Shown in pieces: positions 1 to 58,482 of a stretch of 64,000 bases of DNA. Below the pieces are notes generated by a model. The model made no database searches, was not told the origin of the DNA, and was given only the letters and a program-made list of their open reading frames with translations. This stretch comes from an uncultured Eggerthellaceae bacterium (GTDB taxonomy: Bacteria > Actinomycetota > Coriobacteriia > Coriobacteriales > Eggerthellaceae). Every line of letters starts with the position of its first letter. Position 1 is the first letter of the stretch. Location: assembly GCA_947565915.1 (NCBI GenBank), contig CANOHY010000004.1, forward strand, positions 9,254 through 73,253. Reading direction: 5' to 3'. The position numbers were made by a program, and so were the translations under genes.

Positions 1-1244
1 TTGGCTGACGCTCCCCCATCCACGTTCAGCACCTTCAGCGGCACCCCAGTATCGGCTTCCATGGCGCGCACGAGGTCGTGCACTTGATAGGCGAGCGACT
101 CCAATGCGGCGCGCACGATATGCGCCGTGGTGATACCGCGAGTGAGGCCATAGATCGCACCGCGAGCATCAGCGTCCCAGTAAGGAGCGCCCAAGCCCGT
201 GAAGGCAGGTACCACGTACACGCCCTCGCAGCTGTCGACCGAACGTGCGAGCGCCTCCGATTCCGCAGCCGTCTCGATGAGACCTAGCCCATCGCGCAGC
301 CACTGGATGAGCGCGCCGCCCATGAACACGCTTCCCTCTATGGCATATTCAGGACCATGGCCTGGGGCACTTGCCGCAATGGTGGCTAAAAGCCCGCTCT
401 TCGACGTGGGCACCGTGCCGCCCGTATGCATCAGCAGGAAGCATCCCGTACCATAGGTGTTCTTCGCTTGGCCCTCTTCGAAGCAGCATTGGCCGAACAG
501 CGCGCTTTGCTGATCGCCCGCAACGCCTCGTATGGCTATGCCATCGAAGACGCCGTCGCGCTTCGTAACGCCGAAGTCCCCAGATGACGGGCGCACTTCG
601 GGCAGCATCGACATGGGTATGCCGAACAGCTCGCAAAGCCACTCATCCCATTCCAATGTGTGGATGTTGAACAGCATGGTGCGACTAGCATTGGTATAGT
701 CGGTCGCATGCACGGCGCCATCCGTGAGCGACCAGATGAGCCAGGAATCCATGGTGCCGAAAGCCAAGCTCCCCTCTTCGGCAAGCTCGCGTGCGCCTTC
801 CACGTTGTCGAGGATCCACTTCACCTTGCTTGCCGAGAAGTACGGGTCGGGAATGAGCCCCGTCTTCGAGATGATGGTCTCGCGCACGAGCGGCTCGCTG
901 CAAAGCGCATCCACGATGTCGGCGGTGCGACGACATTGCCACACGATGGCATTGCAGATCGGCTCACCGGTCAGCTTGTTCCACACCACGGTTGTCTCGC
1001 GCTGGTTGGTGATGCCCAGACTGTCGATGTCCGACACGTCGAGCCCGTTCATGATGAGCACGTCCGAGATGGTGGACAGCTGTGCCGTGAGCACTTCCAA
1101 AGCATCGTGTTCCACCCAGCCGGGATGCGGATAGTATTGCGTGAACTCACGCTGCTTCGCGTCGACGATCTTGCCCTCGCTGTTGACGAGCACGGTTCGA
1201 GCCGAGGTGGTGCCCTCGTCGAGCGCCAGGATGTATTTGCTCAT
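1..1244 (-). CDS. glpK: glycerol kinase, N-terminal ~414 codons only (C-terminus lies beyond window start)
   Basis: Absent from the ORF track because it is open at position 1. Hand translation of the reverse strand from ATG 1244-1242 gives [47 protein letters not shown]..., the GlpK/FGGY N-terminal signature. The long + ORF 660-1538 is its antisense shadow. Confidence 0.85.
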
Positions 1245-2267: not shown

Positions 2268-4544
2268 TTACCGCAAGGGCTTCGGGTCGATTTGCGTGTA
2301 GTCTATCACCGACGATGCGCTGCCCGATCCCGCGGAATCATCCCGTAAGACGGCTGCAACCTTGGATGCGAGACGAGGGTCGATGTTCTCGAAGAGGGAC
2401 GTTGCCGGCACGCCCGAAAGGTTAGCCGAGGTTGTTGCAAGGGGACAGCCCACTTCCTCGATGAGTCGACGCACCAAGGGGGAATCGGGCATGCGCAAGC
2501 CGATGGTGCCTGCCTGCGAGCGATAGGCCACGGGCACCTCGTCGGAGGCTTCTACCACAGCCGTGAAGGCCCCCGGCCATTGGCGTTGCACCTCGGCACG
2601 AGCCGCCTCGCTCACATTTTGCCCGTAGCGCATGAGGTCTTCGGGGCTTGCGACGAGCCATGCCACGGGCTTTCCCTCGTCGCGCCCCTTCAGCTCAAAC
2701 AGCTGCTGAGGCGAAGGAGCGAAATCGACCGCAACGGCCAGCCCGTAAACCGTATCGGTAGGGAAGATGACTGCGTTGCCCTCCTTGAGCGCGGCCACGG
2801 CTGACGCGAATGCACCCGTTTCGCCCTCGTAACTCTCAACCAGTGCTTGGGCGCAACGCAGCCCATCCACTGCAGCGCTCATGATGCCCCCTGCATAGCC
2901 CGCACCTTCCCCGCACGGGTAGATGCCCACGTTCTCGGAGAGCCTCGTCGGCCTGCCCCCATGCCCTCGTGCGATGTCGCGCGGGCGCACCTTCTTCACC
3001 ACGCCGCGCTTCGCTTGCAATGTGTCGTCGCTGCGCACGATGCGCACCGGACTTGAGCTGCGCGTTTCCACGCCTGTGAGCACCGCTTGGGGATCGGCGA
3101 ACCCTTTGAGCTTGCGATCGAAAAGGGGGAGCGCCTCGGCAATGGATTCGATCACGAATTCGGGCAGCACCTCGCGCAAATCGCTCCACACCACGCCGCG
3201 TGGATACGTTGGCTTCACCTTCGCGGAAGGATTGCCCGCTTTCATGCTCAGCAAATCGCCTACCGTCTGCGCAGGCGCGCTCCACGGCTCGCCACCGTCT
3301 TCTCGGGCCTCTCCATAGGCAGCTTGCTCGATGCGCCGTTGGAATACCGTGCCAGCAAGAGGGTCTGAGCTGGGAAAATCCTGAGGGGTCACGCCCACCA
3401 GCAACGCAGCGTTGGAATTCTTGCCGTCGCGTGCGAAGCGGCTCATGCCATTGACCACCACGCCGAAGTCCTCGCTTGCGGCAGCTACAACGCTGCCACC
3501 GGGGCACATGCAGAAGGTGTACACGCCACGCCCGCTTGGAAGATGCACCGCCATCTTGTAATCGGCAGCCCCTAGTGCCGGGTGCCCGGCGAAACGGCCA
3601 TATTGGGCTTTATCGATGTCGCTTTGCAGATGCTCGATGCGCACGCCAACCGAGAACGGCTTGGGCTCCATGACCACCTGCGCTCTTTGCAGCATGCGGA
3701 AGGTGTCGCGCGCAGAATGACCGCAAGCCAAGATGAGCTCATGGCATGCGATCGTCTCGTCTTCGCACGATCCTTCCGCCTGCTTGCGAACCACTATCTC
3801 TCGCAGCTTGTCGTGCTCATCGAAGCGCACGTCGACCAATTGTGTGCGAAACCGCACCTCGCCGCCAAGCAGTTCGATGCGCTCGCGCAGATTTCGCACC
3901 ACATCCACCAGCTTGTCGGTGCCTATATGAGGCTTGGCCAAAACGAGAATCTCCTCAGGAGCGCCCGCATCCACGAACCACTGCAGCACATGACGGGCAA
4001 GCGGGCTCTTTGTGCCCGTGGTGAGCTTCCCATCCGAGAAGGTGCCTGCGCCGCCCTCGCCGAACTGCACATTAGCCTGCAGATCCAAGTCGGCGCCCTT
4101 CTCGAAGGCCTCCACCGCCTCGAGGCGCTCGTCGATTGCAGCTCCGCGCTCCAACACCAACGGGCAAAGCCCTGCCTGTGCCAAATAGAGGGCCGCGAAC
4201 AAGCCTGCGGGACCCGTGCCTACCACTACCGGGCGCGGCTCGCCTTCGGGCAGCGCGCACCAGGGAACAGCAAGAGGCCGATAAGGCTCATGCGGCTTCA
4301 CCCGCACGCCCTTGGAGGGCTTGACCTCGCTGAGACCATGCACGCCTGGGCAATCAATCGCAAGCGTGGCGATGAAACGGACACCGCTCTTGCGCGCATC
4401 CACGCTGCGCCGCACGAGCTTCGCTTCAGCAACATCGTCCTGGCTTAGCCCCAATGCCCATGCAGCAGCTTGATCGATGAGCTGTTGCCCGTCCGAAAGC
4501 GCCGCATCGAGGGGCAGGGAAATGCCTGAGGCTTCGATGATCAT
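2268..4544 (-). CDS. FAD-dependent oxidoreductase (COG2509-like) fused to a C-terminal Sua5/YciO/YrdC-type domain
   Basis: 758 aa. The N-terminal ~570 aa carry a Rossmann GTGPAGLFAALYLAQAG motif and CPGG / GYAGGI motifs typical of this flavoprotein family. The last ~181 aa (AVIFPTDTVYGLAV...GLRMPDSPLVRRL...TTSANLSG) match the YrdC/Sua5 fold signature. Confidence 0.7.
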   Translation of the reverse strand: MIIEASGISLPLDAALSDGQQLIDQAAAWALGLSQDDVAEAKLVRRSVDARKSGVRFIATLAIDCPGVHGLSEVKPSKGVRVKPHEPYRPLAVPWCALPEGEPRPVVVGTGPAGLFAALYLAQAGLCPLVLERGAAIDERLEAVEAFEKGADLDLQANVQFGEGGAGTFSDGKLTTGTKSPLARHVLQWFVDAGAPEEILVLAKPHIGTDKLVDVVRNLRERIELLGGEVRFRTQLVDVRFDEHDKLREIVVRKQAEGSCEDETIACHELILACGHSARDTFRMLQRAQVVMEPKPFSVGVRIEHLQSDIDKAQYGRFAGHPALGAADYKMAVHLPSGRGVYTFCMCPGGSVVAAASEDFGVVVNGMSRFARDGKNSNAALLVGVTPQDFPSSDPLAGTVFQRRIEQAAYGEAREDGGEPWSAPAQTVGDLLSMKAGNPSAKVKPTYPRGVVWSDLREVLPEFVIESIAEALPLFDRKLKGFADPQAVLTGVETRSSSPVRIVRSDDTLQAKRGVVKKVRPRDIARGHGGRPTRLSENVGIYPCGEGAGYAGGIMSAAVDGLRCAQALVESYEGETGAFASAVAALKEGNAVIFPTDTVYGLAVAVDFAPSPQQLFELKGRDEGKPVAWLVASPEDLMRYGQNVSEAARAEVQRQWPGAFTAVVEASDEVPVAYRSQAGTIGLRMPDSPLVRRLIEEVGCPLATTSANLSGVPATSLFENIDPRLASKVAAVLRDDSAGSGSASSVIDYTQIDPKPLR

Positions 4545-29222: not shown

Positions 29223-29939
29223 TCATTGCTCATCTGCCTCATCCTTGGCATGCCAGCGCTCCCAGAACCGAAGCTTAGCGAAGTAATCCCGGCGGTGCTG
29301 GCGCACGTAGGGCTGAAGCGCCTCGATCAGCTCGTCGGCATCCATGCCCTGGAGCCTGCTCGCGAGGAAGGCTATGCCGGGGATGGCGCGGTATCCATTC
29401 TCGTACTCCTCCAAGGTCATGAAGGGCTTGGCATCCACTGAACCCGAGTCATCCAGGCAGCCTATCACTACGAGTTCGCCCGAGCGCCTGACCCAGCGCA
29501 CGTCATCGATCGGGACCTCCATCATGGCCACCTCGGTTTCCATCCCGATGAGCCCATCCTCGAACCAGGTGATGCATTGCCCATCAGCATCGGGCTCGTC
29601 GAACCCGAGCCTCTCGGCGTACATCCGCATGGTGTTGCGCTGCTTTCTCTTTATGAACCAAAGCGGCGGCGAATTAGTAAGAAAAGCGACAATGAGGAAG
29701 AAGAGAATCAAGACGAAAACCCAAGTATTGCAAGCAACCAACCATGCTGGAAACTCAAGTAGCCAAGCAAGCAGAAATGCAAATAAGAGATAATACACAG
29801 AGACGATAATGAAAGCGAAGAACTTCTTCCACTTCGACATGAAGTCGCAGATGCGCGAGTACTCGAGGAACTGCTCCCTTGTGAATGAGTAGCTGCACTC
29901 GGCTTTCATGTCATCTGCCATTGGAATGGTTTGCTGCAT
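29223..29939 (-). CDS. hypothetical membrane protein, candidate immunity protein for the RHS toxin
   Basis: 238 aa. The first ATG overlaps the RHS ORF by 29 nt, with alternative ATGs at 29921 and 29909. It has 2-3 TM helices and a ~140-aa soluble C-terminal domain. The 5' half is A/T-rich. The immunity role is inferred from position only. Confidence 0.6.
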   Translation of the reverse strand: MQQTIPMADDMKAECSYSFTREQFLEYSRICDFMSKWKKFFAFIIVSVYYLLFAFLLAWLLEFPAWLVACNTWVFVLILFFLIVAFLTNSPPLWFIKRKQRNTMRMYAERLGFDEPDADGQCITWFEDGLIGMETEVAMMEVPIDDVRWVRRSGELVVIGCLDDSGSVDAKPFMTLEEYENGYRAIPGIAFLASRLQGMDADELIEALQPYVRQHRRDYFAKLRFWERWHAKDEADEQ

Positions 29940-32900
29940 ATTGATTGTCTTTCCATTGCTGCTTTTTTCCCGAGTCTTCTAAGTACTTATCTGCCATAAG
30001 AGCTCCAATGCCAAAAGCTACTCCAACCACTGCCATTGCAATCAGGCCAGCGGGGCCGCCAATCAGGGTACCGGCTAAAATGTAAGCACCCGATGCTGCC
30101 ATCAATCCTCCCGCAGTTGCGCCTACAAATACCCACGAATCTGCTAGGAACTCGACGCTTGCATCGCTCGCCGCTCGGTCCGGCGTCACGTTCGGGTTGT
30201 TGTAGGCTGCATAGGTGTCGACCGCCACGCTGCCTATGCCGGTAGCAACGCCAATAGCTCCGACGACCTTGCCAGCGCCACTCAGGATCTTGTTCATCGC
30301 GGCAAGGCTGCTTTCCCCGAAGCCCGTCCCAGACTTCACGACCACCCTGGCAGCCTGCCACCCGACCGCGTTCGCGCCCTTCGTGATCTCGATGGTGAAG
30401 CTCGCGCCCTTCTGCAGCGCATCGAGGGCGGTGGCGCATTGGGCTGCGGCCATGGGCTTGGGCGCCTCCTTGCCCATGTGGAGATACTGGCTGCAGTACT
30501 TCTCGGCAGCAGCCCGCGAGATCCAACCGTTGTTGTACATCGACCAGGCGAGATAGGAGCGGTCCGCTCCCTCTTGCATCTTGGAGAGCTGCTGCTCGTT
30601 GTACATGCGCTGCGCGGTCGTGGTCAGCTGGTGCGATTCGTTGTACTCCCTGCGCCTCTCGTAGGTCCGCTCCTTCGAGGATGGCGAGTACTTCGCCATG
30701 ATCGACTCTTGGCGCCTGCGCTCGGCCTCCGCCTTGTACTCGGCCTCGTAGCTCGTGAGCATCTTATGCCCAGATGGGTCGATTGCGTTCACCGGGTCGC
30801 CCTCGGAGTAGGCGTAGCGCAGCTGCGAGGCGGGGTTGGCTGCTTGTCCCAGATAGGTGTCCTGGCTTGCGAACGAGAGGGTGGCCGTCACGAGGAAGCG
30901 GGCCCGCAGGTAAACAAGCCCTGTGGCAGAGTCTGCCTCCTCGGCGTTCCAGCCGCGGCTCGGCAGCGTGCCCGTGGCGGCCTCGATCGTGCCGGTTACG
31001 CTGAACGCAGCGGTGCCCACGAGGCTGCCCGAGCCGTCGAAGGCAGCGGTCACCGAGCCGCGCCCGTCGAAGGCATATGAGGTCGCGCCCTCGGCAAGGG
31101 GAAGCGCAGAGAAGGAGCCGGAATCGGCTTGGGGAAGGCCACGGGTCTCGACCGAGGCAGCGGTGCTATTCGCAGACGGCTCGGCTACAGCCGACATCAA
31201 GGAGAGCTCAGGTTGGGCTTCCGTGGCAACGGGGTCGAGCAGGGCCGTCAGGTCGTCCCCGCCCGCATCGAACAGGTAGAGATGGTCGCTCGTCGCGCCA
31301 TCCTCTCCGACGGTCGCAAGGGGCTGGGCAACGTCGCTCAGGGACGTGCTCGCGTAGGCCCGCTCGTCCATGCCCACGATCACGCCGCCGCTTGCAAGCT
31401 CGCCTGCGATCGAGGATACCGGGGGCTCTCCTGCCCCCAGGCCGCCTGTGGCATCGTCCGACAGGTCGTCGGCATCGAGCTCGTCCCTGCCGCGCCCGCG
31501 CCCGCGCGCATGCCACTTGGAGGCCAGAAGCTGCAGGAGCGCCCCCGATGCAGCAGGATTCGCTATACCTAAGGACCCTGCGAACCCCGAGCAGAGCGCG
31601 AGGGCCAGCGGTGCCAGCCCATCGCCCAGGTTGGGAAGCGCATCGGCGACGCCCTCCGATGCCGACACCCCGCCTTGGGCGATGGCCTCCTCTCCCACGC
31701 TCGCCTGCCAGACGCGGTTGCCATCCCCGTCGTAGGCAACGCCGAGCGAGAGCGCGTCTCCCTGCATCACGGCCGTCAGGCGGTTCTCGAGCCCGTAGGA
31801 ATAGGTGGTAGTGCCATCGGGCGCTTCTAGCTCCGTCAGGTTCCCGGCATCGTCGTAGGCATAGGTGGTCTTCCCTTCATTGCTCGTGGAGCTCACGAGC
31901 CTACCATCGGCGTCATAGGCGAACGTGGCGTGGTAGGCGCCCGCTCCCGTGCGGGAAGCCTCGACGCGGTTGCCCGCCGCATCGTAGGCGAAGCTCTCCT
32001 TAAAGGCGCCATCAGGGCCTGTGCCCGCAACGCCGGCAAGCCTTCCGGCATCGTCGTAGGATAGCTCGCGGCTGCCCTCGCCGAGTCCTTCGGCCTGCCA
32101 CTGCTCGCGGGCTATGCGCCCCGCGCCATCGTAGGCATACGCGTAGCTCGACACGGGATCACCGTGCGCATCGAGGTTCTCGACAGCAGATATGCGCCCG
32201 AGGCCATCCCTCTGCCATGAGGTGGAGGACCCGTCGGGGCGAGCGACGGATGCGGGGCGCCCCTCCGCATCGCAGGAGATGTTCCAGCTGCCCGCATCGG
32301 TTGAGATGGACGCAGGGTTGCCAGCGACGTCGTAGGAATAGCGGGCCACCTTGCCGTCCGGGTAGGCGACCGACGACACGCGCCCGTCGCCGTCGTATGA
32401 GTAGGCAAGTCGCCTGCCCGCTCCGTCGGTCTCGGACGCTATGCGCCCCGCTCCGTCGTATTCGCGCATGTAGGTTCCCGTCCAGTCGGAGCGCGAGGCA
32501 AGGTTGCCCTCGTCGTCGTAGGCGTAGCCCACCTCCGATCCAGGCGATGCGGGGTAGGACTTCGAGGTCAGGTTGCCCTCGCCGTCGTAGGCGAAGCGCG
32601 TCTCGGTGCCTGCGCCATCGACGTAGGAGGTCGGCCGCCCCGCGGCGTCCCGGGCGATCCTCTCGGTTGCGCCCGTCGGCGAGGTGACGCTCGTCAGGTT
32701 GCCGAGGGCGTCGTAGGCGTAGGAGGTGGTGGCGCCGAGCGCATCGGTGGCGCTCGCGACGTTGCCGAGAGCGTCACGCTCGTAGGTGGTGCTGCCCGCG
32801 CCGTCAGTGACCGAGGCGATGCGGCCTGCGGCATCGTATGAGTAGGTGGTGGGCTGGGATGTGCCCTCGGACCTCGAGGTCAGGTTGCCCGCCGCATCGT

Positions 32901-35900
32901 AGGCGTAGCGGGCGGACTGGGCGCCCTCGGGCGCTTGCCCGCTCTCCTGGAGGGACCGAAGCGCCGATGCGGCGCCATCGGCGCTCGCCGCCTTGACCGA
33001 GGCCATAAGGCGCCCTGCCTCGTCGTACCCGAACGCTGATGCCGTGCCGAAGGCGTCGGTTGCTGCCACCACGCGGCCGTCGGCATCGTAGCGCCAGGTA
33101 GAGACGCCCTTGCCGACCTTCTTGGAGGCGAGGTTTCCCGCCGCGTCGTATGAAAAGGCGGCCTCGACGGTCGCCCCGCTTGTTGCCGAGACGAGGTTTC
33201 CGCGCTTGTCGTAGGCGTAGCGCGCCGTCGCACCCGCGCCGTCGGTCATCGAGGTGGGACGGCCCATCCCGTCGTAGGCGATGCGGGTCGCATTCCCTGC
33301 GCCGTCGCGATAGGCGATGACGTTGCCCACCGCGTCGTAGGCCCACTTGCGCTCGCTGCCGTTGGAGTCGGTAGCCGAGGTCAGGCGCCCGAGCGCATCG
33401 TAGGCGAAGGCGTTCTCGAGCCCCAGGTTGTCGGCTATGCCCACGATGTTGTCCATGACGTCATAGGATAGGGCAAGCTCACGGCCTAGAGGAGTGGTCG
33501 TGCCCACAAGCCGGTCGGCGACGTCGTAGGCATAGGTCTGCGTGGCCCCGACGGCATCGGTGACCCGGATGAGGTTTCCAACTTGGTCATGCTCGAGGGT
33601 AGTGGTGGCACCTATCGGGTCGGTCATGGACGTGACGTTGCCCGCCGCATCGTAGGCGTAGGCGGTGGCGTGGGAAAGCGGGTCCTTGGCGGCGGTTACG
33701 TTTCCGGCTCCATCGTAGGCATAGGAGCTCTCCGCGCCGCTCGGGTCCCTCCAGGCGATGAGGTTGCCCACGCCGTCGTAGTCGAAGCTCAAGGCTCGGC
33801 CGCTCGGGAGCGCGAAGCGCACGAGGTTGCCTGCCCCATCGTATGCGTATGCGGTCTCGTTGCCGAGAGGATCCGTCTCGGAGGTCAGGTTGCCCGCCTC
33901 GTCGTATCCGTAGGTGCGCCGGTATCCCTCCCCGTCGGTCATGGCGACGATGCGCCCCGCATCGTCGTAGGCATAGGCGCTCATGGCCCCCGCCTTGTCG
34001 ATGGCGGCAACCACGCGCCCGCAGCCATCGTATTGGTAGGCGGTGCGGTTGCCTGCCGCATCCTGCTCCAGGACGAGGTTTCCGCACTTGTCGTGCTTGC
34101 GCGTGCTCGCGTTGCCGAGGGCATCGGTGGTGGATACGAGCAGCCCGCATGCGTCGTATGCGTAGGTGGTGACGGCTCCCGCCGCATCGGTCGCCCGGAC
34201 GACCTCGCCCCATTCGTCGTACTCGCTTGTCACGGTGCGCCCGAGCATGTCCGTCTTGGAGATCTGGCGTCCCGCCCCGTCGTATCCGAAGTCCCAATGG
34301 CGCGCATCACCGTCTGACGCCGAGGTCATGTTGCCGCGCACGTCGTAGGCGAACGAGAGCGTGACTCCCATGACGTCGGTCAAGGAGGTCAGGTTGCCAA
34401 GAGCGTCGTAAGCGAGGCTCGCGGCGTTTCCGCGTGCGTCCACGGTGCGCGCCACGTTGCCCGCTGCGTCGTATCCCTGCTCGGTGCGGTTGCCGAGCGC
34501 ATCGATCGCGGCAACGGCGCGCCCGAGGGCATCGTATTCGAAGGCGGTCGTAAACCCGCGCGCATCGGTTGTTTTGACGAGGTTGCCGACCGCGTCGTAC
34601 TCGAAGGCGGTGACGTTGCCCGCGCCATCGGTCACGGAGAGCAGCTCGCCTATGGAGCCGTAGGCGTAGCGCACCTCGACGCCCGCGCCGTCAACCTGCG
34701 CGATCACGTTTCCCCGAACGTCGTATTCGGTCGAGATGGTCGCGCCTTCTGGGTCGGTCGTCGACACCTGGCGCCCTGCGCCGTCGTAGGCATAGGTGGT
34801 GACGTTGCCTTCGGGGTCGGTCGCGGAGGCGAGGTTGCCCGCTGCGTCGTAGGCGAACGCCCACTCCTCCCCTGCCGGGTCGACCATAGACGTCATCTGC
34901 CCGGCCTCGTCGTAGGCGAGCTCCCAGATCCTCCCCTCCACGTCGACCTTGGCGAGCCTGCCGGCAGCGGTGTAGGCGTAAGATGTAGTCGCACCCGCCC
35001 CATCCGCCTCGCTTATCAATCTGCCGCCAGAAGCGTAGGCTCGCTCGGCAATCGTGCCGAGGGCATCTTCGCTCTTGGTCAGGCGGCCCATGGTGTCATA
35101 GGTGCTCTCCGTGCGGTTGCCGAGCGCGTCGATGGTGGCGAGCGCTACCCCGTAGGTTCCGTCGCGCTCGTAGGTGGTGATGGCACCATCCGGCCCCTCC
35201 TCGGAGGTGAGATAGCCGCGGGCATCGTAGGCATAGGAGGTCGCGTTCCCGGCAAGATCGGCATGCGCGGTGCACCTGCCCTTGCAGTCGTAGGACCAGG
35301 ATTCCACGTTGCCCAAGGCGTCCGTGTGCGCGACCTGGTTGCCTGCCGCATCGTAGGCATAGGATTCGGTGGCGCCGCTCGGAAGGGTAACCGAGGTGGC
35401 CTGTCCCTTGGCGTCGCGGATGAACGCCGTGCGTTGGCCGTTCGCATCGACGAGGGACGCGAGGTATCCCATGGGAGTGAGCTCGTAGGTGGTATGAGCA
35501 CCTGTGCCGTCCGTCTCGCCGACGATGTTGCCCGCAGCGTCGTACATGGTGCGCGAGATATTGCCCGCAGGGTCGGTGACCGACACGCGTCGGCCCATGG
35601 CATCGTAGGCATAGGCCGTCGTGCGCCCCAATGCATCGGTCTCGCTCGTCACCCACGGGCCGGAATACGCGTAGGCGATGGACACCCCGTCGGCATCGGT
35701 GGCGCGGAGGAGGCGGTGCGCCGAGTCGTACTCGAAGGAGAAGGCCTCTCCGCTCGACGACGTTTGCGAGACGAGGTCTCCCGCAGCGCTGTAGGCGTAG
35801 GAGATCTCCTCGCCATCGGGGTTCACCTGGCCAACGAGGCGGTTCTTCCCATCATAGGAATAGCTCGTCGCCCAGCCATCGGGCGAGGTGGAGCAGGTCA

Positions 35901-38900
35901 GGTTGCCGCGCCCGTCGTGGGCATAGATGCCCTCCTCGTCGTAGGCGAGGTTTCCGGATGCGTCGTATCCCCGCGAGACGGAGGTGCCGTCCGGATAGCC
36001 TATCCCCACCGTGCGCATGAGCGAGTCGTAGCGGTAGGTGGTCACCTGTCCCATGGCGTCGGTCGCGATGGTGGCGCCGCCCACGTAGGAGAAGCGCACC
36101 ACGCCTCCGAGAGCATCGGTCTGGCTTATGACGCGCCCTTGGTTGTCGTAGGCGTTGCGCACGGCCATGTTGCCATCTGGGTCCCTGAAGGAGGTCATGC
36201 GATGCGCCCCGTCGTAGCCATAGCGGGAGGTGGCGCCATTGGGCTCGGTGGCAGATACCAGGTTGCCGGAGGCATCGTAGCCGTACGTGCAGGCGGCCCC
36301 TCCGGGAAGCGCGAGCTTGGTGATATGCCCTGCAGCGTCCCACTCGAGCCCGAAGCGGATGCCCGAGGGGGAGACGACCGCGGAGACGAGCCCCTCGGCA
36401 TTCCTTTGGATGGTGGTAGCGAGCCCCAGCGCGCTCGTGCGGCTGGTCATGAGCCCCCAGGCGTCGAAGGAGTCGTAGGAGCCGTCCTGCCGCGAGAGCG
36501 TCCAGCGGACGTAGTCGACCTTGTTCTGCGTGTAGCGCGTGCCGGTCAAGGTCAGGGCGGGCTCCTCGGGGCATCTGAACGTGAGACCGCTCGCGCGGCT
36601 GAAGAAGTACACCTTGCCATCCCCCGCAGAGTACGCGATGGTGTTGGCGTCGGTCATGGAAAGCGATGCATCCCACGCAAACGACCAGCCGCGCCCGAAG
36701 GCCCCGGCCACATCTGCCGCCTTGGAGTTGTAGGTGCGGGCGAGCTTAAAGTCGCCTTCCACCTCGGGCACGCTCGCATCCACGCGCTCCATCACGAAGT
36801 TGCCGGTGCTCAGGTTCACCGGCTCGTATCCGTACTCGCAGTGCTTGGCCCTGCCCATGAGCGCCGAGTCGATCCGCCTCTTCTGGTCCACCGAGAGGTT
36901 TGAGGGGTTGTAGGCAGCGGTGGTCTTGGGGTTGCGGACGAAGAGCGTGTTGCCCTTGATGGAAAGCGAGTCGTGCACGTGGTTGTCCGCGCAGATGGTG
37001 GAAAGGGAGACCCCGTAGTGCTTGGCGATGTAGGGCAGGGTGTCGGTTGCCTTGGCCTGATAGATCAAGAACTTGTCGCTTGCCACCTCCTTGCCGACGG
37101 TGGCGTTCAGCACCGGCTGGGCGCGAAGGGAGTAGAGCGCATCTGCCGAGAGATTGGCGAAGAGCGGCGTTTGCCAGTTTCCGAGCTTGTCCTTGTACTT
37201 GGTGGCGTTCGGGTAGGCGGCCTCCCAAGCGGAGGAGTCGGGGTACTTGTAGCTCTTGGAGGCTATCGAGGCCCCCGCATCCCCGCGGCCATCGAGCTGC
37301 CAGCCCACGGCAGCGCCGGGTGTCGCCACCCCGTCTGCGAACACGCCATCGACCGCTTGGGTGCCCGCGACGGTCGTCTCGGTGACGGGCCGCAGGGCCA
37401 CGGTGGTGGAGTTCAAGGGATAGGAGGGGCTCACCGGGTCGGGAGTCGACCACTTGACCTCGAGCTTGGGCGGGTTGGCCGAGGTGTTGCCGGAGAACAC
37501 CTCGCATTGCATGTTGCGCTCGTCCTCGGACTTGAGCACGATGCCGTTGGGGGCGGCCAAGCCCTGCGCCCAGGCGTTCACCGCCTCGCGCACGTCCCAC
37601 TTCACGTAGCCCTCGGAGGTGCGCGCCTTCTTGAATGACAGGAAGGTGTGCTTGGCGTTCTTCTGGGTGTTCCACTTGAGCGTGTAGTAGTCCCACGCCT
37701 CGTCCATCCGGTAGGCGCCCATGTTGTTCTTGCCAGCCGAAAGGGTGGTGAACTGGTAGAGCGAGAAGGTGGCCGAGTCGATGCGCTCCTCGTTCATGTT
37801 GGCCGCAAAATCGTAGTCGAACTTCGCGTAGACGCGGCAGAACTCGTGCCCGCGCCCTCCCGGGTTGAAGGCGCCAGAGGCGGTTGCCACCCCGTCGTCA
37901 TAGCCCACCGGCAGAAAGCCCGAGTCGCCGATGACGCGGTCCCACGCCGACTCGACCACGGTGATGGTGGTCTTGGAGGCGCCGATGGAAACAGAGGGGT
38001 CTATGCGCACGGGGTAGGCCCGCTCGGGGGCACTTGCCCACTCCCAGTCGATGTCGAGCGCGATGACGGGCGCGCCTTCCTCCTCGTCGAGCGCGAGCCT
38101 CACCCCATCGCTCACCGCCCCGGCTGCATCCTCCATGTCAGGCGCGGCTATCGTCGCGACGAGCTCTCCGGCCGCATCGCGCACCACGACCGAGCCCTCC
38201 TCCAGCGCGCAGGCAAGGCGCGCGGGCAAATCGATGCGCGTTCGGAAGGTGCGCGGGGCCACCTCGCGCTTGAGGATCACGTCCTCCTTCACGAGCGAGC
38301 CCACGAGCGTGTACTGGTAGTCGATGCCCTCGGCAACCTCGGTGTAGCGGATGGAGGTGCCCTCCGCGGCCGACACCGTGAAGTCGCCGTCCAAGGGAAC
38401 CAGTCCGATGCTGCACTCATCGGCCCGAAGGACAAGCCCGCGCCCCTCGTCCATCTTGGCGGGAAGCTCCGCCGAAAACGAGTTCGCGGCGTTCACGTAG
38501 GTTGGGTTGCCTGCTTCCTTGCCTGGCACAGCCACAAGGGTGTTGTCGATGGGGGCGAGCGCGCCGTCCTCGGTGGCGTAGACGAGGTCGCGCCCGCCTA
38601 TCACCGTGGTGAAGTGGCGCGCATCCTCCTGGAAGACCACCGCCTCGCCGTCGGTTGCCACGGGAGTGCCGGGCACCTCGTCGAGCTCGAATCCGTAGAA
38701 GTCCTCTGGAGGCGCCGCCTTGGGGTCTGCCGGCTCGGGTGCCTTGGCCTCTTCTGGCTTCTCGGCGCCTTCCGTTGCCACCCCGTCAGCCAGCGAGGAG
38801 GCGAGCTCGGCCTGCTCCTCGATCCTCTCTGCGAGCTGCTCCTGCACCTCGGCCGCATGGGCGAACGATACCTTGCCGCCCAGGCTGAAGGCCAAGACGA

Positions 38901-39681
38901 ACGCGAGGACGCACGCGCATCCCTTCGAGAGCGCGCCTGCGAGCTTTCCCTTCGCTCGCGCGACCACGGGAAGCGCAAGCAGGCTGCGCCGAGGGCCGAG
39001 CGTCGCTTCCTGGCGCACGATGGCCGATATGCAGCAGAGCCACGCAACGCCGCCGATTAGGTTCAATGCGAAATGTAGAGCCCCTCGCATGCCATAAGGC
39101 GCAAGGCCTATGGCGGCGCCCAGCAGATGCGAGGCGCCCGCGAAGGCCGCCGTGAGCAGCAGGAGCGCGAGCAAGAGGTGCTTGGATGCTGCGAGCGCAT
39201 CTGTCGCCTTCGGGCGCCCAAGCCCGAGGACCGGGGCCAGGAAGAGCGCGAGCATCACTGGCACTGCGAGCACGGCGAGCACCTGTGCGAAGATGGCGAT
39301 GGCGATGGCCACCCCGTCGCGGCCGACCAGGCTGCCGAGCAGCGCCTGGAAGAGGAGCGCGAAGAGCACGCTGGCAACGCCCAGAGCGAGGGCGAAGGCC
39401 GCGAGCAGCCCGAATGCGCGCAGCAGCGCAGATGCCGCTTGCCGTGGTTCGCGACAGGCTAGCTCGCGCCCTAGATCGCGCGCGAGCTCGCGTCGCAGAG
39501 CGAGCCCGCATGCCACGATGGCCAGCGCGAGCAGCACGAAGAGCCCATAGACGATGGGCGCGGGAACGCTTCTGAGCCGGTTGGAGAGGGCGGCATCTGC
39601 CAGAGCATAGGTGAGCGACGCGCATAGCGAGAGCGCGCACGAAAGGAGCAGAGCTCTTTGTTGAAAGAAATTCCCCCTCAT
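29911..39681 (-). CDS. giant RHS/YD-repeat polymorphic toxin (WapA-like): N-terminal polytopic membrane region, LysM-like segment, YD-repeat shell, RHS-core end, 284-aa C-terminal domain of unknown family
   Basis: 3256 aa from ATG 39681 (AGGAGGTG 7 nt upstream), whereas the track ORF starts 25 codons earlier. It carries dozens of YxYDxxGN/R repeats and VNLSTGNF at the repeat start. The core end reads ...GLVYLRARF...SQDTYLG...GDPVNAIDPSGH. Confidence 0.9.
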   Translation of the reverse strand: MRGNFFQQRALLLSCALSLCASLTYALADAALSNRLRSVPAPIVYGLFVLLALAIVACGLALRRELARDLGRELACREPRQAASALLRAFGLLAAFALALGVASVLFALLFQALLGSLVGRDGVAIAIAIFAQVLAVLAVPVMLALFLAPVLGLGRPKATDALAASKHLLLALLLLTAAFAGASHLLGAAIGLAPYGMRGALHFALNLIGGVAWLCCISAIVRQEATLGPRRSLLALPVVARAKGKLAGALSKGCACVLAFVLAFSLGGKVSFAHAAEVQEQLAERIEEQAELASSLADGVATEGAEKPEEAKAPEPADPKAAPPEDFYGFELDEVPGTPVATDGEAVVFQEDARHFTTVIGGRDLVYATEDGALAPIDNTLVAVPGKEAGNPTYVNAANSFSAELPAKMDEGRGLVLRADECSIGLVPLDGDFTVSAAEGTSIRYTEVAEGIDYQYTLVGSLVKEDVILKREVAPRTFRTRIDLPARLACALEEGSVVVRDAAGELVATIAAPDMEDAAGAVSDGVRLALDEEEGAPVIALDIDWEWASAPERAYPVRIDPSVSIGASKTTITVVESAWDRVIGDSGFLPVGYDDGVATASGAFNPGGRGHEFCRVYAKFDYDFAANMNEERIDSATFSLYQFTTLSAGKNNMGAYRMDEAWDYYTLKWNTQKNAKHTFLSFKKARTSEGYVKWDVREAVNAWAQGLAAPNGIVLKSEDERNMQCEVFSGNTSANPPKLEVKWSTPDPVSPSYPLNSTTVALRPVTETTVAGTQAVDGVFADGVATPGAAVGWQLDGRGDAGASIASKSYKYPDSSAWEAAYPNATKYKDKLGNWQTPLFANLSADALYSLRAQPVLNATVGKEVASDKFLIYQAKATDTLPYIAKHYGVSLSTICADNHVHDSLSIKGNTLFVRNPKTTAAYNPSNLSVDQKRRIDSALMGRAKHCEYGYEPVNLSTGNFVMERVDASVPEVEGDFKLARTYNSKAADVAGAFGRGWSFAWDASLSMTDANTIAYSAGDGKVYFFSRASGLTFRCPEEPALTLTGTRYTQNKVDYVRWTLSRQDGSYDSFDAWGLMTSRTSALGLATTIQRNAEGLVSAVVSPSGIRFGLEWDAAGHITKLALPGGAACTYGYDASGNLVSATEPNGATSRYGYDGAHRMTSFRDPDGNMAVRNAYDNQGRVISQTDALGGVVRFSYVGGATIATDAMGQVTTYRYDSLMRTVGIGYPDGTSVSRGYDASGNLAYDEEGIYAHDGRGNLTCSTSPDGWATSYSYDGKNRLVGQVNPDGEEISYAYSAAGDLVSQTSSSGEAFSFEYDSAHRLLRATDADGVSIAYAYSGPWVTSETDALGRTTAYAYDAMGRRVSVTDPAGNISRTMYDAAGNIVGETDGTGAHTTYELTPMGYLASLVDANGQRTAFIRDAKGQATSVTLPSGATESYAYDAAGNQVAHTDALGNVESWSYDCKGRCTAHADLAGNATSYAYDARGYLTSEEGPDGAITTYERDGTYGVALATIDALGNRTESTYDTMGRLTKSEDALGTIAERAYASGGRLISEADGAGATTSYAYTAAGRLAKVDVEGRIWELAYDEAGQMTSMVDPAGEEWAFAYDAAGNLASATDPEGNVTTYAYDGAGRQVSTTDPEGATISTEYDVRGNVIAQVDGAGVEVRYAYGSIGELLSVTDGAGNVTAFEYDAVGNLVKTTDARGFTTAFEYDALGRAVAAIDALGNRTEQGYDAAGNVARTVDARGNAASLAYDALGNLTSLTDVMGVTLSFAYDVRGNMTSASDGDARHWDFGYDGAGRQISKTDMLGRTVTSEYDEWGEVVRATDAAGAVTTYAYDACGLLVSTTDALGNASTRKHDKCGNLVLEQDAAGNRTAYQYDGCGRVVAAIDKAGAMSAYAYDDAGRIVAMTDGEGYRRTYGYDEAGNLTSETDPLGNETAYAYDGAGNLVRFALPSGRALSFDYDGVGNLIAWRDPSGAESSYAYDGAGNVTAAKDPLSHATAYAYDAAGNVTSMTDPIGATTTLEHDQVGNLIRVTDAVGATQTYAYDVADRLVGTTTPLGRELALSYDVMDNIVGIADNLGLENAFAYDALGRLTSATDSNGSERKWAYDAVGNVIAYRDGAGNATRIAYDGMGRPTSMTDGAGATARYAYDKRGNLVSATSGATVEAAFSYDAAGNLASKKVGKGVSTWRYDADGRVVAATDAFGTASAFGYDEAGRLMASVKAASADGAASALRSLQESGQAPEGAQSARYAYDAAGNLTSRSEGTSQPTTYSYDAAGRIASVTDGAGSTTYERDALGNVASATDALGATTSYAYDALGNLTSVTSPTGATERIARDAAGRPTSYVDGAGTETRFAYDGEGNLTSKSYPASPGSEVGYAYDDEGNLASRSDWTGTYMREYDGAGRIASETDGAGRRLAYSYDGDGRVSSVAYPDGKVARYSYDVAGNPASISTDAGSWNISCDAEGRPASVARPDGSSTSWQRDGLGRISAVENLDAHGDPVSSYAYAYDGAGRIAREQWQAEGLGEGSRELSYDDAGRLAGVAGTGPDGAFKESFAYDAAGNRVEASRTGAGAYHATFAYDADGRLVSSTSNEGKTTYAYDDAGNLTELEAPDGTTTYSYGLENRLTAVMQGDALSLGVAYDGDGNRVWQASVGEEAIAQGGVSASEGVADALPNLGDGLAPLALALCSGFAGSLGIANPAASGALLQLLASKWHARGRGRGRDELDADDLSDDATGGLGAGEPPVSSIAGELASGGVIVGMDERAYASTSLSDVAQPLATVGEDGATSDHLYLFDAGGDDLTALLDPVATEAQPELSLMSAVAEPSANSTAASVETRGLPQADSGSFSALPLAEGATSYAFDGRGSVTAAFDGSGSLVGTAAFSVTGTIEAATGTLPSRGWNAEEADSATGLVYLRARFLVTATLSFASQDTYLGQAANPASQLRYAYSEGDPVNAIDPSGHKMLTSYEAEYKAEAERRRQESIMAKYSPSSKERTYERRREYNESHQLTTTAQRMYNEQQLSKMQEGADRSYLAWSMYNNGWISRAAAEKYCSQYLHMGKEAPKPMAAAQCATALDALQKGASFTIEITKGANAVGWQAARVVVKSGTGFGESSLAAMNKILSGAGKVVGAIGVATGIGSVAVDTYAAYNNPNVTPDRAASDASVEFLADSWVFVGATAGGLMAASGAYILAGTLIGGPAGLIAMAVVGVAFGIGALMADKYLEDSGKKQQWKDNQYAANHSNGR

Positions 39682-39798
39682 GGCATCCACCTCCTGGCGG
39701 ATGCCATGAATCTTACCATTTTCAAGCCCCAAAATCAAGCTCTGACCGGGGAACACTTGTTAGTGTCAGAAAGCGCTGATGATATATAGCCAATTCGA

Positions 39799-39827
39799 AA
39801 TCATCGAACATCGAATCCAGAAGTCAA
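39799..39827 (-). promoter_or_regulatory. candidate promoter for the RHS gene (TTGACT - 17 nt - ATGATT)
   Basis: It lies in an A/T-rich 107-nt gap between the PspC-domain gene stop and the RHS 5' region. The -35 is good and the -10 is weak. An alternative TATATA lies at 39783-39788. Confidence 0.25.
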
Positions 39828-39863
39828 TCGAAGCGCACGCTAACCCCGATGTGCACCTTGATG

Positions 39864-40685
39864 CTAGATGAAGAACACGCCCAACGATGGGGCGCCGAAC
39901 ACCCCCAAAGCCGTATCGAGCAAGCCAATGGGCCCAGGGATGATGCAACAAGCGGCGCTGACCGCGCAAAAGGCTATGAAGCCGAATGCGCCGAACATGG
40001 TGACCGCCGACGAGCAACTCCAAACCCCAACCACGAACAAGATTGCCGCAGCCAAGAGCAGCGGCCAGAACAGCTGAATGGCATAAGGAATCGTTCTGGG
40101 CGACACCAACCCCGTACAAATGGGCAGTACGGCGATGGACGAAGCTGCAAGCATGATGCCCGCCGCACGCCAAGCCGAGCAATGGCGCGAGCGCACCGGC
40201 ACAACGATGAAGAAAAGCCCTGTTATGAATGGCAGCACTGGCCAGAAGTTCCACCAAGGAACTCCTGGCACCAGCAATCCCAGCAAAAGGGCTGTGGCAA
40301 GCGCAAGCGCCCCAAGCGCCACCACAATGACCACGCGCGACAACAGCGACAAACCACGAAGCGGAAGCCGTACGAGCTCCTTTTGACCCTCGTCGTCGGT
40401 TACCAAGTACAAATCGGCTTCATGGTGGCTCGCGCGCTTGGCGTCCTGCACCATCACGTCGTAGGGGCCCGACTTGTCGGGCTCGAGCGGCACATGCGCC
40501 CACAGCACCAGATAGGCAATGGAAGCCAGGCCAGCCGTTACCACCATAAGGAGCACGGCCATGATGCGGATGACCAACGGGTCGACCTCGCAGTAATTGG
40601 CGATGCCCGCACATACGCCGCCCACATACGCATCGCGCGAGCGATACAAGCGGCGCTTCGACCTTTGTCGCACGGCAACAGCCAT
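39864..40685 (-). CDS. PspC-domain membrane protein
   Basis: It has RLYRSRDAYVGGVCAGIANYCEVDPLVIRIMAVLLMV (PspC domain) plus ~6 further TM helices. The ATG at 40685 has a GAGGGG RBS and lies 4 nt after the upstream stop. The track start at 40739 overlaps the upstream gene. Confidence 0.7.
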   Translation of the reverse strand: MAVAVRQRSKRRLYRSRDAYVGGVCAGIANYCEVDPLVIRIMAVLLMVVTAGLASIAYLVLWAHVPLEPDKSGPYDVMVQDAKRASHHEADLYLVTDDEGQKELVRLPLRGLSLLSRVVIVVALGALALATALLLGLLVPGVPWWNFWPVLPFITGLFFIVVPVRSRHCSAWRAAGIMLAASSIAVLPICTGLVSPRTIPYAIQLFWPLLLAAAILFVVGVWSCSSAVTMFGAFGFIAFCAVSAACCIIPGPIGLLDTALGVFGAPSLGVFFI

Positions 40686-58266: not shown

Positions 58267-58482
58267 ATATTGCACCTCCTTCTCGAAGCATCGGTTCCGC
58301 CCTTCGGGTGGGACGTTCGCTCCGAAAAGAAAACGACCCTTGCTCGAAAGACAGCAAGGGTCGCACTTGTTCATCCAAAGCACAACCACCTCGGCTGGCC
58401 GCTTGCGCGTTTGAGCCTTTCGGCACCTGCTGTCTTCAGTAGCGGAACTACGTATAGTTCATGCTGCGCGAACGCAGCCTTG
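58267..58482 (-). promoter_or_regulatory. rplJ 5' leader with terminator/attenuator hairpin (L10-leader-like)
   Basis: On the minus strand, GACCCTTGCT-gtctttcg-AGCAAGGGTC followed by GTTTTCTTTTC (58324-58362) lies ~60 nt upstream of the rplJ ATG. Further hairpins lie upstream. The position matches known L10 autoregulatory leaders. Confidence 0.5.

Follow-up and report, generated by a model that had tools for sequence, protein, structure and literature searches.

The stretch of DNA analysed here, called the window below, consists of 64,000 nt of contig CANOHY010000004.1 (GCA_947565915.1), and all positions are given in window numbering. On its minus strand lies a gene for an RHS protein of 3256 aa that occupies 29911..39681 as one uninterrupted reading frame. 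The protein has RHS/YD repeats, an Rhs-associated core, a DPxG motif, a wall-association region and a DUF6531 plug, which make it a WapA-type protein, and its first 222 residues are predicted to form a six-helix membrane module that stands in front of an internal signal peptide. The frame is open over 29911..39756 and the best start in it is the ATG at 39681-39679, which has AGGAGG 8 nt upstream and an anti-Shine-Dalgarno duplex of -14.8 kcal/mol, while all other in-frame ATG, GTG and TTG codons among the first 260 codons gave -6.5 kcal/mol or weaker (range +1.2 to -6.5). In the homologous gene at locus L002, GAAGGAGG and an ATG are found at the matching position and the anti-Shine-Dalgarno duplex is -12.4 kcal/mol. 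An earlier note on this DNA had claimed that the N-terminal region starts from an ATG with a ribosome binding site and is in frame with the RHS body, and this was borne out.

The same note had described about 275 residues of multi-helix region followed by a signal-like segment, and this too was recovered, as six transmembrane (TM) helices and a signal with n-, h- and c-regions. Kyte-Doolittle hydropathy gave seven hydrophobic segments, six with the limits listed for TM1 to TM6 in Table 1 and a seventh at aa 254-270. The secondary structure in AlphaFold2 (AF2) models has helices at 2-32, 41-69, 79-119, 121-151, 159-191, 196-227 and 238-268, with low confidence in three dimensions; two runs were made, each from a 4-sequence alignment, and gave a predicted local distance difference test score (pLDDT) of 52.8 and 54.6. 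An acidic helix at 273-299 had the best pLDDT of the model (75-79), and when the second model was searched with Foldseek no match was better than E 1.3 or TM 0.32. By hydropathy and AF2 the six helices lie within about 222 aa and the outside loops are about 10 aa or less. Lys and Arg are concentrated at the N-terminus and in three further stretches, loops 63-82 and 156-167 and linker 223-253, with about 19 inside versus 4 outside when counted by eye on the charge map, and the hydropathy and Lys/Arg profile of the whole family agrees with this pattern. By the positive-inside rule, this charge pattern fits a module of six TM helices whose two ends lie in the cytoplasm and, after it, a signal with its N-terminus inside and its C-terminus outside. 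The complete signal, with AHA↓A (the arrow marks the predicted cut), occupies aa 246-276 and is thus internal, and it aligns with the N-terminal signals of homologs; the more distant homologs of the post-signal region, P0003 and P0004, start with an ordinary signal peptide that aligns with it. The cut in SFAHA↓AEVQ, after aa 276, falls at 38854, where the earlier note had ended the region. TM1 (nt 39595-39654), with ALLLSCALSLCASLTYALA↓DA, itself resembles a cleavable signal with ALA at -3 to -1, and the L002 homolog has GLA↓D there; TM1 was treated as a signal-anchor because other members of the family do not have such a cleavage-like site. A lipoprotein signal was rejected, as LSKGC, judged by eye, misfits a lipobox.

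Table 1. Features of the RHS locus, in window numbering, with residues counted from the ATG at 39681-39679 (from its own start for the immunity candidate)
Feature	Residues (aa)	Position (nt)	Strand	Basis or remark
Six-TM membrane module	1-222	39016..39681	minus	hydropathy, AF2 helices, family alignment, hidden Markov model (HMM) and shuffle test
TM1	10-29	39595-39654	minus	
TM2	41-62			
Basic loop	63-82			
TM3	83-119			
TM4	123-155			with family-invariant Pro141
Basic loop	156-161			
TM5	162-195			
TM6	201-222			
Basic cytoplasmic linker	223-253	38923..39015	minus	charge map; 8 Lys/Arg; equivalent of the signal n-region
Signal h-region (CACVLAFVLAFSLGG) and c-region (KVSFAHA)	254-269 and 270-276	38854..38922	minus	predicted signal peptidase I site after A276, AHA↓AEVQ
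Acidic helical and Pro-rich linker	277-330	38692..38853	minus	predicted mature N-terminus
RHS start signals		AGGAGG 39695-39690; ATG 39681-39679	minus	Shine-Dalgarno AGGAGG 8 nt upstream of ATG
Promoter-like element		39710..39738	minus	-35 TTGATT 39738-39733, 17-nt spacer, -10 TAAGAT 39715-39710
WapA-type RHS body		30766..38691	minus	conserved N-terminal region, DNRLRE/CBM96, weak LysM, DUF6531, RHS repeats, Rhs_assc_core
Polymorphic C-terminal toxin domain	2976-3256	29914..30756	minus	Gly-rich hydrophobic segment at aa ~3199-3232
Candidate immunity gene	238 aa	29223..29939	minus	overlaps the RHS stop codon by 29 nt; hydrophobic aa 37-96, read as two TM helices

When the N-terminal domain was searched exhaustively with phmmer against 1.84 billion representatives, one full homolog, P0002, and a fragment were found. 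P0002 is a 3247-aa RHS protein from an independent assembly (locus L002) and is 49% identical over residues 3-284. The two N-terminal domains differ by a single 1-aa in-frame indel, and there is no frameshift or stop in the domain across a synonymous divergence (dS) of about 1.2. The ratio of nonsynonymous to synonymous divergence (dN/dS, Nei-Gojobori) was 0.40 for aa 1-245, 0.25 for the signal segment and 0.26-0.29 for the RHS body, and the identities were 45% for the module, 81% for the signal segment, which is the most conserved N-terminal stretch, and 61-77% for the body. By this comparison, the module is under purifying selection. The earlier note had raised the case of a sequencing-error frameshift that would reveal two genes; the second gene has the same domain in frame, and the stop, Shine-Dalgarno sequence and start codon of a two-gene junction are absent between module and RHS in the window. 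The note was mistaken in stating that there is no in-frame ATG before the signal-like segment and that the GTG at 38967-38965 is the only internal candidate, for in-frame ATG codons occur at M143 and M198, a further GTG codon at V222 (39018-39016), and ten other GTG or TTG codons besides. As none of these codons has a Shine-Dalgarno sequence and none is conserved in the L002 homolog, the errors leave the conclusion of the note unchanged. An out-of-frame artefact of GC-rich DNA was ruled out, since homologs occur at a GC content of 0.35. Judged from these comparisons, the long hydrophobic N-terminus is neither a mis-called start nor a GC-rich artefact, and as a rule for annotation the same would hold for other RHS N-termini of this kind.

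The relatives were collected by a genome scan in which the query was the RHS extracellular region after the signal, and in each of the 76 loci the open reading frames (ORFs) were read upstream to the first possible start; the closest loci were Eggerthellaceae metagenome-assembled genomes (MAGs). As the earlier note had advised, the RHS genes of relatives were thus checked for the domain, and it was found both fused and as a separate upstream gene. Thirteen of the 76 loci have a fused multi-TM extension of about 220-300 aa followed by a signal, namely L005, L006 and L007 in Coriobacteriia, L011, L013 and L014 in Lachnospiraceae (GC 0.35-0.37), L017, L019, L060, L067, L075 and L076 in Propionibacteriaceae, and L020 in Parvibacter caecicola DSM 22242. 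Four of the 76 have a short fused form of two TM helices and a signal; this form was found in L008, L009 and L015 (Adlercreutzia shanghongiae R25), and also in L003 and L010 (frameshifted). In L012, L016, L018 and L022, and also in L004, the RHS protein has a plain signal and a separate multi-TM gene lies directly upstream, and about 50 of the 76 loci have a plain signal only. In the split loci the junction is a stop, GAGGGGGAG and ATG in L012, an ATGA overlap in L018 and a 5-nt gap in L022; such stop, Shine-Dalgarno and ATG junctions or ATGA overlaps indicate a presumptive translational coupling. All 17 fused forms have a basic stretch, a hydrophobic core of 15-20 aa, a G, P or S a few residues before the site, and a small-x-small motif (AHA, ALA, AFA, AWA, VYA, ASA, AAA, AGA or AYA) that is followed by acidic or Pro-rich sequence.

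Homology of the module across these forms was established by profile methods. The phmmer searches link L005, L006, L007, L011, L013 and L020 with the separate protein of L004, and an HMM of that cluster recruits the separate genes of L016 (3e-21), L012 (2.5e-20) and L022 (6e-10) and the fused L017. On iteration, L018 and L002 joined in round 2 and the window domain in round 3, and no unrelated membrane protein was recruited among 3757 ORFs. When the window and L002 domains were aligned with the module cluster by hhalign, E was 3.8e-5 with a probability of 70.8% over 181 collinear columns, and Pro141 fell on the invariant Pro of the family, which is the sole invariant column in the family alignment A5. 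Since TM proteins inflate such scores, a control was run in which the HMM was built without the window or L002 and the residues were shuffled only within each helix or loop: the window domain scored 55.9 bits versus 24.0 +/- 5.0 for 500 shuffles, with a maximum of 40.2, so that 0/500 reached it. Pairwise BLASTP between the window domain and the upstream protein of L004 was negative, although the profile searches connect the two. Word-indexed protein searches with the N-terminal domain, the RHS N-terminal region and the family alignment gave at least 1, at least 3 and at least 2 matches, respectively, and scans of genome and metagenome contigs for patterns from the N-terminal domain alignment gave nothing. 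With the window domain, the low-GC members and all 13 aligned members as queries, no Pfam or NCBIfam match stood out from the noise (weak Yip1 matches, E 0.004-6.6, were judged non-significant), and a profile search of PDB sequences with the module family found no match at E<=1. In public annotation the separate module proteins are each a 'hypothetical protein'. On this evidence, it is very probable that the N-terminal domain of the window protein is a real translated module that is homologous to the separate upstream genes.

The distribution of the module follows the RHS protein to which it is linked. In neighbour-joining trees of the RHS extracellular region, all module-linked RHS proteins, whether fused to six TM helices, fused to two or split, form one clade in 81/100 bootstraps and the plain-signal RHS proteins fall outside it. 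Fused and split forms interleave within this clade, which means that more than one event of fusion or fission took place. The module goes with the RHS N-terminal region and not with host taxonomy or the C-terminal toxin, which argues against an immunity role, and this role was rejected. The sequence comparisons indicate that the fused module originated by gene fusion of the Rosetta-stone type, as separate homologs stand upstream in the five split loci. Of the suggestion in the earlier note that the region is a remnant of gene fusion, the fusion part therefore stands and the remnant part does not, in view of the purifying selection and of the retention of the module throughout the RHS clade.

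A functional precedent is provided by Streptococcus suis, in which a mutant that lacks the upstream 'secF-like' gene neither kills nor has WapA in its wall fraction, and both return on complementation (PMC12704120). S. suis WapA-CT1 has the architecture DNRLRE-LysM-DUF6531-Rhs, srtB-secF-like-wapA loci have been reported in Streptococcus, Enterococcus and Lactococcus, and the label 'secF-like' was derived from an AlphaFold superposition (PMC12704120, 2025). Matching plasmid loci were found in Lactococcus (L081) and Streptococcus (L082), where a class B sortase is followed by a hypothetical membrane protein (208-221 aa, about six hydrophobic helices when counted by eye) and then by a DNRLRE/RHS protein; by synteny, the membrane proteins of these two loci stand in for the S. 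suis partner JNE31_03695 in all sequence comparisons. The S. suis and other Lactobacillales loci and the window have in common a Sec-type signal (a predicted one in the window), DNRLRE, LysM, DUF6531, Rhs, E↓P(I/V)NL.TGNF, a DPSGH-type end and a length of about 3200 aa, and a small membrane protein that has no large domain outside, which in the Lactobacillales is encoded just upstream and overlaps or abuts the toxin gene. Moreover, the Lactobacillales RHS bodies from the srtB-6TM-RHS loci are the sister group of the module clade (74/100). What differs is that in the window the partner is fused in frame to the signal peptide of the toxin, and that the hosts of the module are Coriobacteriia, Propionibacteriaceae and Clostridia and not Lactobacillales. 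None of 13 module members nor the L081 and L082 proteins matched SecD_SecF (E<=10 for the module members), and neither the module family (profile, E<=1) nor these two proteins matched the SecDF chains in PDB. A SecF identity of the module was therefore rejected, and as far as sequence goes the label 'SecF-like' is unsupported for either set of proteins. By analogy, then, the window domain shares its position, size, topology and linkage with the S. suis partner, and membership in the same family is not supported by sequence.

A reasonably likely explanation of these observations is that the first 222 residues are a six-helix cognate membrane partner, with its N- and C-termini inside, that has been fused to its WapA-type RHS toxin. 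The module would insert co-translationally, and the seventh hydrophobic segment, which would be the original signal peptide of the toxin, would then begin translocation of the RHS body of about 2980 aa. Signal peptidase I would cleave after AHA276, leaving a 7-TM protein of about 29 kDa in the membrane and freeing the RHS protein to the wall. Cleavage at the retained site has a good probability, and is favoured over a permanent anchor because the signal-peptidase-type site has been kept and split forms exist. The membrane part may aid the export of its own toxin, as the S. suis protein does, and the fusion would set partner and toxin at 1:1. We lean slightly towards such a function as export helper, which by analogy is the best backed by literature of the readings offered in the earlier note, where it was called a dedicated export device. 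A more doubtful, though possible, extension is that the module represents a new family of single-use membrane partners, not related to SecF, that bind the signal helix of their own toxin in the membrane and either gate its cleavage by signal peptidase or pass the 330-kDa RHS protein to the wall.

Several observations weigh against the partner reading. The HMM of alignment A5 scored the L081 and L082 proteins at control level (15.7 and 15.4 bits, with 8/500 and 45/500 shuffles as good), and hhalign of the module family against them gave a probability of 0.3%; as no sequence similarity was detected, the case for common ancestry with the Lactobacillales proteins is built on position, size and topology and on the RHS tree. 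A class B sortase gene is absent from the window and from every module-bearing locus, as searched by tblastn with both SrtB proteins. The extracytoplasmic loops are very short and P141 is the sole invariant residue, so that no specific activity is indicated, and from the AF2 models, with their low pLDDT, no fold conclusion was drawn. In Ala-rich sequence, small-x-small motifs are not rare. Within the family, the Propionibacteriaceae forms other than L017, and also L020, were assigned by hydropathy and position and were not recruited by the iterative HMM, and L020 has one phmmer link, to L007.

An alternative that we regard as unlikely is that the signal-like helix is an uncleaved TM7 and the whole N-terminus a permanent polytopic anchor, which would tether the RHS cage to the membrane of the producer for contact-dependent delivery. 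With seven hydrophobic segments and the N-terminus inside, the RHS body would indeed lie outside, and the wall-binding-type domains (DNRLRE and a weak LysM) make retention at the surface plausible. However, the five split loci encode the module and an RHS protein with an ordinary cleavable signal as separate polypeptides, so that a covalent tether is not required in the clade, and S. suis WapA occurs in the wall fraction (PMC12704120). All 17 of the 17 fused forms, moreover, keep the small-x-small c-region with a helix-breaking G, P or S before it, and because of this site the membrane anchor that the earlier note had listed became less likely. An improbable account is that of an evolutionary accident, namely a recent read-through fusion in which the N-terminal domain is neutral or decaying. 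Its faster evolution compared to the body (45% versus 61-77% identity and dN/dS of 0.40 versus 0.26-0.29) and the finding of one full homolog only in the exhaustive phmmer search would agree with this, but the frame has stayed intact across a dS of about 1.2, Pro141 and the layout of the helices are conserved, Coriobacteriia, Propionibacteriaceae and Lachnospiraceae all have fused forms, and one RHS clade is linked to the module, fused or split, throughout.

It is very improbable that the start has been mis-annotated and that internal initiation just before the signal yields an ordinary signal peptide-RHS protein as one of two products. There are in-frame codons for it (GTG V222 and V239, ATG M198), and a gene finder called the distant homolog P0003 from an internal GTG; however, these codons have the weak anti-Shine-Dalgarno duplexes noted above and are not conserved in L002, a consensus scan found no promoter-like site inside the domain, the upstream frame is under apparent purifying selection and is homologous to bona fide membrane genes, and the stop, Shine-Dalgarno and ATG junction of the split loci is not there. 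Least probable of all is an intramembrane peptidase of PrsW or CPBP type that extrudes and processes the toxin, for which there is a precedent among Gram-positive polymorphic toxins including RHS proteins (PMC3482391). No member of the family matched PrsW, CPBP or any Pfam family, even at E<=10, and there are six helices and not eight. The window and L002 proteins share H168, H185 and H203xxxN207 in TM5-TM6, which is superficially like HxxxN, presumably the CPBP motif, but other members have neither these His and Asn residues nor an EE motif, and in the family only P141 is invariant.

Among known N-terminal modules, the PrsW peptidase domain also forms N-terminal polytopic modules of Gram-positive toxins and is sometimes joined to the toxin through RHS repeats (Zhang et al. 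2012, PMC3482391). PrsW modules have about eight helices, conserved catalytic motifs and no intervening Sec signal, whereas the window module counts six helices, is without conserved polar residues or a match to PrsW in Pfam, and has a complete signal peptide after it. Like the window protein, Bacillus subtilis WapA and other plain Sec-signal RHS proteins have an RHS cage that carries a polymorphic toxin at its C-terminus, a Sec-type signal and, downstream, an immunity gene (a candidate one in the window), but they begin with the signal peptide, and by the family HMM no module is fused to them or encoded upstream. Rhs effectors of the type VI secretion system with prePAAR and transmembrane domains also carry N-terminal TM helices on an Rhs toxin. 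These effectors differ in having a prePAAR motif, a PAAR domain, one to three helices per transmembrane domain and Eag chaperones, and in acting in the membrane of a Gram-negative target. The window protein begins with MRGNFFQQR, which has nothing like AARxxDxxxH, which we take to be the prePAAR motif, and neither PAAR nor DUF1795 was found in the RHS protein or its neighbours, so that a prePAAR/PAAR identity was rejected in view of the lack of PAAR, a prePAAR-like motif and an Eag-type neighbour. An LXG identity, with export by a type VII secretion system, was likewise rejected, as there was no LXG- or WXG100-like match in Pfam or NCBIfam. The earlier note had listed the known delivery modules and placed the region outside them; the list had omitted PrsW, MuF, MafB and TANFOR, and although the module is indeed not a plain Sec signal, prePAAR/PAAR or LXG, it is not unprecedented, given the PrsW-RHS proteins described in 2012 (PMC3482391) and the upstream 6-TM partner described in 2025. 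What appears to be new is a fused, sequence-distinct and unannotated version of a pairing first described in 2025, and not a categorically new delivery system.

These loci would extend the S. suis type of pairing to gut Coriobacteriia, Propionibacteriaceae and Clostridia, where the protein family concerned is unannotated and has no Pfam or NCBIfam model, and they bear on the question how RHS toxins of more than 300 kDa cross the Gram-positive membrane and wall. The pairs of fused and split forms are comparative and independent evidence of joint action by partner and toxin. If the two are made at 1:1 and signal peptidase then parts them, the partner is likely to serve its own substrate stoichiometrically and not to be a general catalytic Sec accessory; and if the idea of a single-use partner holds, the fused forms would reveal a strictly stoichiometric export of giant Gram-positive toxins, with one helper per toxin.

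In the RHS body, DNRLRE/CBM96 lies at aa 612-743 (NF033679, E 2.9e-21; PF24517, E 2e-11), a LysM at aa 875-905 is weak (17 bits versus the Pfam cut-off of 20.9), and DUF6531 lies at aa 953-1027 (E 7.6e-18) with the motif EPVNLSTGNF at aa 953-962 (nt ~36796-36825). RHS repeats of PF05593 match in 42 stretches (E 1.5e-281), and Rhs_assc_core (TIGR03696, aa 2905-2972) ends in DPSGH at aa 2968-2972. E↓PVNLSTGNF and DPSGH agree with the first and the last autocleavage site, respectively, that experiments have located in S. suis WapA-CT1. As no second internal motif of the type DPxG[LHM] was found in the window RHS protein, it probably forms one RHS cage. The C-terminal toxin domains of the window protein and of the L002 homolog differ, as expected of polymorphic toxins, and that of the window had no match in Pfam or among PDB sequences. 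The Gly-rich hydrophobic segment at its end, AGLIAMAVVGVAFGIGALM, suggests a toxin that may act on membranes. The 238-aa ORF that overlaps the end of the RHS gene is likely to be the immunity gene, a role inferred from its position only.

Some further observations were made on the relatives. The 2-TM forms (L003, L008, L009, L010 and L015) are from Adlercreutzia/Enterorhabdus and are nested in the Eggerthellaceae 6-TM group; they align to the TM3-TM4 part of the module (HMM positions ~75-165), which suggests that they may have arisen by internal deletion. In L010 there is an apparent frameshift between the 2-TM region and the RHS body. The fused ORF of L007 has at aa 225-255 a 15-aa duplication around an ambiguous base, ILTLAAYTLLGTLFI-X-ILTLAAYTLLGTLFI, which probably arose as an artefact when that MAG was assembled. 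By the family HMM, other multi-TM ORFs that precede plain-signal RHS genes are unrelated to the module. Several Lachnospiraceae RHS genes with a plain signal have in front of them ORFs that by eye, and not by profile, look like an AgrB-like membrane peptidase or a membrane histidine kinase (L025, 5119-5730; L029, 288-920; L028, 3792-5237; L051, 4311-5501), which hints at quorum-sensing control of those toxins.

Upstream of the RHS gene, the window and the L002 homolog have in common a block CCGGTCA.A.CTTGATTTT.GGG ... TA(A/G)(G/A)AT ... GGCATCC, and TTGATT-17-TAAGAT presumably acts as the promoter of the RHS gene; a consensus promoter scan picked another site, TTGACT-16-GATGAT at 39827-39800. 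At 39682-39705 (minus strand) there is a perfect 7-bp inverted repeat, GGCATCC-N10-GGATGCC, with the AGGAGG in the hairpin loop and the hairpin ending directly at the ATG, and the second arm of this repeat is not conserved in L002. A metagenome contig of 1774 bp from ENA (L001) is 96.5% identical to the window over the promoter and the first 42 codons (39557-39757), diverges after codon 42 for about 400 bp and rejoins the RHS body about 6.7 kb downstream (32339-32892) at 91%; it represents a variant formed by deletion or recombination, or else a product of mis-assembly across the RHS repeats.

The GC content of the RHS gene is 65-68% and its N-terminal domain is 45% Ala and Leu. The flanking housekeeping genes (TrkA, cytochrome bd, CorC) have 57-62% GC when 30001-40000 is compared with the flanks, and the toxin-tip and immunity end of the locus falls to 57%. 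This pattern is consistent with a horizontally acquired island of which the 3' cassette may have been swapped. Farther along the window, a ribosomal protein L10 leader (RF00557, 47.6 bits) at 58319-58457 on the minus strand, the sole Rfam match in the window, marks the rplJL region.

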